Positions 19,671-19,886 of a stretch of DNA of 64,000 nucleotides are shown here, in pieces (positions within the stretch are counted from its first letter, which is position 1; each line of letters begins with the position of its first letter). The notes under the pieces were generated by a model that did not search any database, was not told where the DNA came from, and saw nothing but the letters and a program-made list of their open reading frames with translations. Source of the DNA: Botryllus schlosseri (Eukaryota); the NCBI GenBank assembly GCA_051294905.1, contig CM119371.1:25236001-25300000 (forward strand), written 5' to 3'. The translations under genes and the position numbers were made by a program.

Positions 19671-19886
19671 ATGAAGCTGGTTACTGTATTCGTAGCAGCC
19701 GTTGCATTCCTCATGTTTCAGGCTATTTGTGCGGGTAAGGAATCATACATTGCCAGCCAACATGTTAGTTTCCTCAATACCTCTATTCTTTCAGATCAGT
19801 GTTCCGTTTATAGCGATTGTGGTTTTGGCACGAAGTTCAGGAAGCTATGCATCGATGGAAAGTGTATTGATGTGGCACCGCCGTAA
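19671..19886 (+). CDS. Small secreted four-cysteine peptide precursor, join(19671..19734,19795..19886), 51 aa, nested antisense in an intron of the LDLa gene
   Basis: Exon 1 encodes signal peptide MKLVTVFVAAVAFLMFQAICA, then a phase-1 intron G|GTAAG...TTCTTTCAG (60 nt). Exon 2 encodes DQCSVYSDCGFGTKFRKLCIDGKCIDVAPP*. AATAAA at about 20105. A paralog at 29205 has the same intron position. A GTAAGT at 19883 could add a third exon. Confidence 0.8.
   Translation: MKLVTVFVAAVAFLMFQAICAGKESYIASQHVSFLNTSILSDQCSVYSDCGFGTKFRKLCIDGKCIDVAPP

Follow-up and report, generated by a model that had tools for sequence, protein, structure and literature searches.

A small family of candidate secreted four-cysteine peptide genes in Botryllus schlosseri, one member of which lies within the intron of an LDLa gene

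Rapidly evolving families of disulfide-rich effector peptides are familiar from the animal defensins and from venom peptides such as the conotoxins, and comparable families that combine a scaffold with variable loops have elsewhere given antimicrobials, channel toxins and signalling peptides. A similar gene layout is found in the nodules of legumes of the inverted repeat-lacking clade (IRLC), in which the nodule-specific cysteine-rich (NCR) peptides are encoded by two exons, the first for the signal and the second for a short mature peptide with four or six cysteines. Genes for short peptides are routinely missed by annotation. Here, we analyzed a stretch of 64,000 nucleotides (nt) from Botryllus schlosseri (C1:25236001-25300000; hereafter, the window), in which an earlier note made from the sequence alone had proposed a novel secreted four-cysteine peptide gene at positions 19671-19886, counted from the first letter of the window. 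We consider it probable that this element belongs, as an intact copy, to a small family of secreted four-cysteine peptide genes in a bilaterian host, one that is lineage-restricted and has grown by tandem duplication, and that each gene of the family consists of a TATA/initiator-like (Inr-like) core promoter, a signal exon of 64 nt, a phase-1 intron of 60-62 nt where cleavage is predicted, and a single exon that codes for a peptide of 28-33 amino acids (aa).

The window copy is modelled as follows:

19671-19734, plus strand: exon 1, 64 nt, which begins with ATG and comprises the 21 signal-peptide codons MKLVTVFVAAVAFLMFQAICA and base 1 of codon 22
19735-19794, plus strand: intron 1, 60 nt, GTAAGG...TTTCAG, phase 1, at the predicted cleavage site
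19795-19886, plus strand: exon 2, 92 nt, which codes for the 30-aa mature peptide DQCSVYSDCGFGTKFRKLCIDGKCIDVAPP, followed by TAA

The spliced product has 51 aa, of which 21 belong to the signal and 30 to the mature part. The succession of a signal exon, a phase-1 intron of 60 nt and a four-cysteine exon, as first read from this locus, is borne out by the sequence, and the same plan recurs in all eight intact paralogous copies described below; equally, the spacing C-X5-C-X9-C-X4-C and a net charge of about zero (computed value, 0) hold for the window peptide. Genes for secreted proteins are reported to have, as their common layout, an intron of phase 1 placed at the signal cleavage site (PMC1626468). 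By inspection, the signal sequence carries a charge at position 2, followed by 13-15 hydrophobic residues; alanine occupies position -1 in every intact copy, while position -3 is alanine or threonine in seven of the eight and isoleucine in the window copy.

When the 495.5-Mb assembly was searched at the DNA level with positions 19540-20140, 20 matches were obtained, 11 of which span the promoter to exon 2 and nine of which cover only the 3' part. Searches started from two other members recovered the identical 11 copies, and protein searches of the same genome, using the signal exon and the product of L016, found no further member. Eight of the 11 copies are intact, seven of these lying outside the window: six on the window's chromosome at 26.02-26.08 and 26.48 Mb (0.76-1.23 Mb away), with the main cluster 0.76-0.87 Mb from the window, and one, the most divergent intact copy (L016), on another chromosome (contig C2). 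The earlier note had called for a genome-wide search for homologs, and had named as grounds for abandoning its proposal a lack of homologs with the cysteine frame or membership in a high-copy transposon. The search yields a family of 11 copies with eight intact; all four cysteines are kept in each of these eight, and a copy number of 11, as determined by both DNA and protein searches, is not that of a high-copy element.

The intact copies are highly uniform in structure. Exon 1 is exactly 64 nt long in all eight, the introns run from GT to AG over 60, 61 or 62 nt, and exon 2 measures 86-101 nt, giving products of 49-54 aa with mature peptides of 28-33 aa. All differences in exon length are multiples of three, and the introns differ by 1-2 nt. 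Since the intron length is not divisible by three in six of the eight copies, and in-frame stops are present in five, splicing is needed to join the signal to the cysteine exon; the intron lengths and stops of the paralogs therefore constitute comparative evidence for the intron. As judged by translation, the 60-nt intron of the window copy is in frame and without stops, so that an unspliced open reading frame (ORF) of 71 aa is open as well, a point absent from the earlier note. An intron of this kind, 60 nt long, in frame and stop-free, is found in two of the eight intact copies, the window copy and L008, and if it were retained in either, the protein would have 71-72 aa, with 20 additional residues inserted where cleavage is predicted.

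Alignment of the eight mature peptides shows that the four cysteines, D8 and G22 are invariant, and the family can be described by the pattern [DE]-x-C-S-V-x-S-D-C, a loop of 8-9 residues, C-[IVT]-x-G-x-C and a variable tail. The loop between Cys2 and Cys3 contains a tryptophan in seven of the eight members. The net charges of the mature peptides are 0, -2, -5, -1, -3, -5, -2 and -5. AlphaFold2 models of two members (pLDDT 74 and 76) both contain the same hairpin across Cys3-x4-Cys4. For model 1, the best Foldseek E-value is 6.6 and VIA-align gives Z 2.0-2.5 for knottins, scorpion toxins and plant defensins; for model 2, no solved chain is matched by VIA-align at Z 2 or more.

These properties bear on the suggestion, included in the earlier note, that the peptide is an antimicrobial. 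A classical cationic family of this type, defensin- or NCR-like and membrane-active, would share with the genes described here the signal exon followed by a cysteine-rich exon, the tandem cluster, the variable mature part and the turnover of pseudogenes; moreover, one of the eight members matches Nodulin_late at a sub-threshold E-value of 0.0092, and the weak fold matches of model 1 include plant defensins and scorpion toxins. However, a charge that ranges from neutral to anionic (0 to -5 across the eight) argues against a classical cationic antimicrobial and weakens the suggestion accordingly, only four cysteines are present, all Pfam matches remain under their cut-offs, and model 2 matches no solved fold at Z 2 or above. 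We rate this alternative as improbable, and a peptide that breaks membranes in the manner of cationic antimicrobials as unlikely.

That the family is maintained as coding sequence is indicated by simulation and by patterns of substitution. Under neutral evolution along the family tree (length 1.57), not one of 20,000 simulations retained the coding features (ATG, GT/AG, open frame and 4 Cys) in all eight leaves, and the outcome was the same when the branch lengths were multiplied by 0.7 or 0.5. The three decayed copies, namely the local paralog in the window together with L013 and L015 in the main cluster, all carry a 9-nt deletion that removes the ATG, a Cys1-to-Arg change and a loss of Cys4, and illustrate what decay looks like at similar divergence. 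Parsimony on the tree gave an omega of 0.47 for the scaffold (P for fewer nonsynonymous changes, 0.033), 1.55 for the loop and 1.30 for the tail, the loop differing from the scaffold with a Fisher P of 0.027; pooled pairwise NG86 values of dN/dS were 0.71 for the signal, 0.74 for the mature core, 1.65 for the loop and 0.84 for the whole. Comparison of the copies demonstrates that the eight genes owe their intact start codon, splice sites, frame and four cysteines to selection, and that the loop between Cys2 and Cys3 (8-9 residues) and the C-terminal tail change freely. The exons are more diverged than the intron (p-distance 0.309 versus 0.258), which is the usual signature of effector peptide families and is compatible with relaxed loops as well.

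We disfavour, as very improbable, the reading in which nothing here codes for protein and the ORFs occur by chance in a repeated non-coding unit or transposon fragment. Such a reading would account for the lack of RNA reads (see below), for the lack of a relative in public protein collections and for the location of the copies within larger duplicated blocks of 1-3.5 kb. However, it is difficult to reconcile with the failure of all 20,000 neutral simulations to keep the coding features in eight copies, with exon insertions and deletions solely in multiples of three alongside introns varying by 1-2 nt, and with a scaffold that has fewer nonsynonymous changes than the loop; furthermore, there are only 11 copies, and neither a transposase nor an Rfam family lies on the unit (an Rfam scan of 18500-21000 gave no matches). 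From the sequence evidence, we regard the peptide family, of which the window contains one intact and one dead copy, as real: it is small, seems not to have been described before, has an ordinary architecture and is maintained by selection.

The flanks of the coding exons contain several further elements:

19602-19609, plus strand: TATA-like box TTTTATTT, 28 nt before the Inr-like A, kept in all eight intact copies including L016
19630-19638, plus strand: initiator-like TCAGATT, with its A at 19633; in each of the eight intact copies, YAG-ATTT precedes the ATG by 37-38 nt
19883-19889, plus strand: donor-like GTAAGTT over the stop codon; GT[GA]AGTT is found in all eight intact copies and in L013
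19993-20140, plus strand: 3' flank with AATAAA at 20105-20110, which matches dispersed copies on other chromosomes; nine of the 20 DNA matches fall here only
20226-20496, no strand assigned: dispersed repeat of 271 nt, with 88-90% identical copies near the paralog cluster

Approximately 75 nt 5' of the ATG are conserved in the eight intact copies, and this is the sole flank common to L016 and the others. We infer that the TATA/Inr-like pair is a core promoter, with transcription starting near 19633 and a 5' untranslated region of about 38 nt; alternatively, TCAGATT can be read as acceptor-like, a Y-tract plus CAG. On the 3' side, the AATAAA cited in the earlier note is present, but it lies in a dispersed stretch and its position is not conserved among the paralogs, in which poly(A)-like hexamers occur 133-656 nt past the stop; L008 is without one within 700 nt.

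The conserved heptamer over the stop codon raises the question of whether exon 2 is internal, that is, whether GT[GA]AGTT is a genuine 5' splice site (19882|19883, phase 2) beyond which the protein continues, the 51-aa form being an unspliced or alternative product. The heptamer, which is retained in all eight intact copies and L013 despite the highly variable tail that precedes it, fits the donor consensus from +1 to +6. However, the bases at -1 and -2 of the putative donor vary between copies, and the stop codon itself explains three of the seven conserved bases. In the 1.4 kb downstream, which we examined for an exon 3, no frame-specific conservation was found: L016 shares no sequence with the others there (blastn or tblastx, E 0.01), while the similarity among the chromosome-1 copies extends over several overlapping frames without preference for any, as in neutral DNA. 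We therefore think it unlikely, although slightly less so than a classical antimicrobial family, that the gene is longer than modelled. About 40 nt 3' of the stop heptamer (..TTGAC.GTTATCCACC) are likewise conserved among the chromosome-1 copies.

The genomic setting of the window copy is defined by three larger features:

29130-29474, plus strand: pseudogene (the local paralog), with CTG for ATG at 29205, an intron remnant at 29269-29327, CGT as the Cys1 codon and Cys4 lost
18600-22484, no strand assigned: segmental-duplication block, collinear with and inverted relative to C1:26078790-26075936 (which holds L007), 67-89% identical in pieces
14662-32131, minus strand: intron of the host LDLa gene, 17,470 nt, GT..AG, with flanking exons at 32221-32132 and 14661-14521

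The nesting of the peptide gene, antisense, in an LDLa intron of about 17.5 kb was recognized correctly at the outset: a minus-strand module, DCR|DGSDE (Ldl_recept_a, E 2.4e-06), is split by the intron, whose sites, AG|GTAATC and TTGACAG|A, are canonical. A local paralog had also been reported, and a copy does exist at 29130-29474; however, it is a disabled pseudogene that has lost its start, Cys1 and Cys4, with CTG at the ATG site following a 9-nt deletion shared with L013 and L015. In the family tree, the nearest relative of the window copy is L007 of the main cluster. Family copies sit inside larger duplicated blocks, and comparison with the main-cluster region, from which 20 kb were extracted, paired not only the block of the intact gene with that of L007, relative to which about 540 nt are inserted in the window copy at 20074-20616, but also the block with the dead copy (28320-29474) with a dead copy of the main cluster at 26102562-26101472. 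The alignments demonstrate that a segmental duplication from the main cluster brought the intact gene into the LDLa intron along with the pseudogene. Since the pair was carried in by duplication, its nesting in that intron is secondary and says nothing on function; the locus shows cleanly how a peptide gene can be duplicated along with a dead neighbour and come to lie inside the intron of a gene to which it is unrelated. An inverted repeat pair of 72 nt (18388-18459 and 27253-27324, 79% complementary), situated 5' of the intact and the dead copy, respectively, is probably part of the duplicated blocks.

The earlier note had speculated that the peptide might be a ligand linked to neighbouring receptor genes. 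We found no basis for this: Pfam detected no receptor domain in the 233 window ORFs of at least 60 aa (150 + 83). The home cluster of the family lies 0.76-0.87 Mb away, and the copy arrived by duplication. The sole Pfam matches among these ORFs are the LDLa exon and a decayed piggyBac-type transposase at 719-1831 on the plus strand, three ORFs of which match positions 4-109, 117-242 and 262-344 of DDE_Tnp_1_7, broken by stops or frameshifts.

To evaluate transcription, four bulk RNA runs labelled as the same species were mapped on 19300-20500, with approximately 6, 6, 13 and 12 in 100 of each run being read. A total of 93, 75, 36 and 60 reads were placed per run, all within the repeat at 20202-20500, and nearly all of them continue into unlike sequence; because the reads on 20226-20496 do so, they originate from other copies of the repeat. 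The transcript evidence that the earlier note had looked for did not appear in these four runs, there being neither reads on the gene nor a 19734/19795 joint, and a word search of sequencing runs listed no RNA run as containing the sequence. One run of unrecorded kind (X1) contained a fraction of 0.22 of the words. The zero reads count against abundant expression of the window copy in the samples covered by these runs. Expression of such peptide genes is often confined to a few cells or to the response to a challenge.

Several points weigh against the reading that the window copy is an intact member of a secreted peptide family kept by selection. None of the four runs placed a read on 19300-20201 or showed a splice joint. 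The signal peptide has been judged by inspection, and the constraint is that seen among paralogs, no relative having been found outside this genome. The omega above 1 for the loop is not significant (binomial P 0.20), so that relaxed constraint on the loop is possible. Given the conserved GTRAGTT at the stop, the gene may extend further downstream. Finally, the window copy is without the loop tryptophan, adjoins a pseudogene, and appears to be under weak constraint of its own, the neutral probability of its having stayed intact since the split from L007 being 0.036-0.19, depending on branch length.

The last of these points lends substance to an alternative in which the other members carry the function of the family, while the window copy, a duplicate that was moved only recently, is silent and decaying toward a pseudogene, intact only for lack of time. 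In addition to the zero reads and a neutral probability as high as 0.19 on its own branch, this copy is set apart by the loss of a tryptophan that seven of the eight members keep, by being the sole member with a net charge of 0, by its move, along with a dead copy, into the intron of another gene and by the insertion of about 540 nt just downstream, relative to L007. On the other hand, its coding features, splice sites and TATA/Inr-like elements are all intact, the probability of 0.036 obtained at the estimated branch length leans toward constraint, and just 6-13 in 100 of the four bulk runs were read. We regard a silent duplicate as a possibility that deserves to be taken seriously, though doubtful, and continue to favour an intact member of the family, which may still be active.

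The peptide would be secreted, with the signal peptide cleaved after Ala21, and two disulfides would fix a small scaffold with a beta-hairpin around C-x4-C. This scaffold may display the variable, usually tryptophan-bearing loop, which would bind an extracellular target that differs between paralogs. The most likely role would be that of a defence, toxin-like or other interaction effector, the candidates including an inhibitor or a pheromone; given the fixed scaffold, variable loop and birth-and-death cluster, a target-binding role fits better than membrane disruption. If expressed, the family would add to the taxon-restricted disulfide mini-proteins that combine a fixed scaffold with a variable display loop.

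We next consider relatives in public collections. A word-indexed search with the 71-aa unspliced ORF returned no candidate sharing three words, and the same search with a 14-row signal and mature alignment of the eight members returned 71 candidates, all of them with E-values above 1; a collection of 5.8 billion protein clusters contains none of the eight products. The mature profile of the eight members, compared with 1.84 billion representative proteins, gave five matches at E 0.001 or better, with no small peptide among them: these are repeat proteins of 394-2134 aa (Dicty_CTDC, Evasin-like, DUF7107 and others) with 6-25 partial stretches. A Pfam scan of the mature parts of the eight members placed none of them in a family at its cut-off. 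The statement that no named animal family could be recognized is upheld, in that the Pfam, PDB profile and 1.84-billion-protein profile searches claim none. Searches of papers found neither the spacing, written as CX5CX9CX4C or C-X5-C-X9-C-X4-C, nor five family peptide strings, nor DUF7107.

In the host genome, one let-7 hairpin contains mature let-7 in its exact canonical form, which marks the host as a bilaterian animal and, consequently, any likeness to NCR peptides as convergent. This hairpin, L067, is located at C11:13146872-13146939; a second locus, L068 (C9:17372761-17372974), contains a tandem pair of let-7-like hairpins, separated by about 140 nt, whose mature arms are variant. The Rfam gathering score is reached by none of these hairpins (42.6-46.3 versus 53.5 bits). 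Searches of the genome for COX1, GFP and Chitin_bind_4 returned no match, a result that does not demonstrate their absence.

With regard to known systems, the family resembles the NCR genes (Nodulin_late, PF07127) in having a signal exon followed by a four-cysteine mature exon, a conserved signal, a variable mature part and clustered paralogs. However, the host is a bilaterian animal rather than an IRLC legume and the family peptides are neutral to anionic; beyond the one sub-threshold match among the eight members, the window peptide itself has no Nodulin_late match at E up to 10. The earlier view that this resemblance is probably convergent is thereby borne out. With the defensins and conotoxins, the family shares a conserved signal and intron, a mature peptide that evolves faster, tandem birth and death, and a fixed cysteine scaffold with variable loops; it differs from them in having only two disulfides, in lacking a propeptide exon as well as any match in sequence or any robust one in fold, and in a charge that is not cationic. 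Inhibitor cystine knot and CS-alpha-beta folds have three disulfides, whereas all eight members have four cysteines. The likeness to EGF-like modules (Tenascin EGF, PF18720, and HB-EGF) lies in the C-I-x-G-x-C hairpin, which aligns with the C2-C3 hairpin of EGF: the window peptide scores 15.9 bits against EGF_Tenascin (E 0.014), below the cut-off of 25 bits, and the only match in a PDB profile search is the HB-EGF chain 1xdt_R (E 0.59, an 11-residue hairpin). EGF, in contrast, has six cysteines and a third disulfide, and only half of the window peptide is covered.

The remaining comparison is with the DUF7107, Dumpy DPY, Dickkopf_N and EB modules (PF23416, PF21164), which share the motif C-x5-(D)C ... 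C-x2-G-x-C. Against DUF7107 (PF23416), the window peptide scores 14.8 bits (E 0.036, positions 1-24) and three of the eight members match, the best at E 0.026, all below the cut-off of 24.6 bits; against Dumpy_DPY (PF21164), the window peptide scores 9.9 bits and five of the eight match, the best at E 0.17, below the cut-off of 27 bits. The nearest named clusters in the ESM Atlas carry DUF7107 and Dickkopf_N, with values of 0.81-0.83 (0.81-0.85 for the neighbours) that, being all below 0.9, serve as leads only. Other exons of the genome outscore the window peptide on DUF7107, reaching up to 22.3 bits, or 30.1 with neighbours.

Shorter C-x5-C-x5-C-x4-C modules (for example, CESDADCAAGSVCVDGSC), with DUF7107 scores of up to 22.3 bits, were observed in other exons:

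C8:4941230-4941316: L071
C8:4947980-4948048: L074
C8:10775477-10775554: L073

Neither L071 nor L074 has a visible signal exon in its vicinity, and these two probably belong to larger multi-module genes. Similar modules occur in a public-library protein of 394 aa, P0006, one of the five profile matches above, which is N/K/I-rich and membrane-anchored and has five tandem units CNNDGDCNNGKKCIDGKCIISPP. Its C-x5-C-x5-C-x4-C units end in CIDGKCIISPP, near-identical to the C-terminal CIDGKCI..PP of the window peptide (hhalign probability 69%).

Common descent with DUF7107/DPY-type modules is possible on these motif likenesses. The known modules are repeats in large proteins with a five-residue middle loop, those of Dumpy DPY lying between the EGF repeats of a giant matrix protein, whereas the peptides described here consist of one module only, with a loop of 8-9 residues, preceded by a signal peptide. 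A plausible origin of the family would be the placement of a C-x5-C-x5-C-x4-C module behind a signal peptide. More tentatively, and with somewhat less credence than we give to a silent window copy, the eight genes may represent a new structural class: anionic, two-disulfide peptides with a tryptophan loop, descended from one DUF7107/DPY-like module that left a large matrix protein and came to lie behind a signal peptide, and serving as paralog-specific ligands or inhibitors of extracellular targets in the manner of a toxin, a pheromone or an immune recognition factor. If true, the family would have no described relative.

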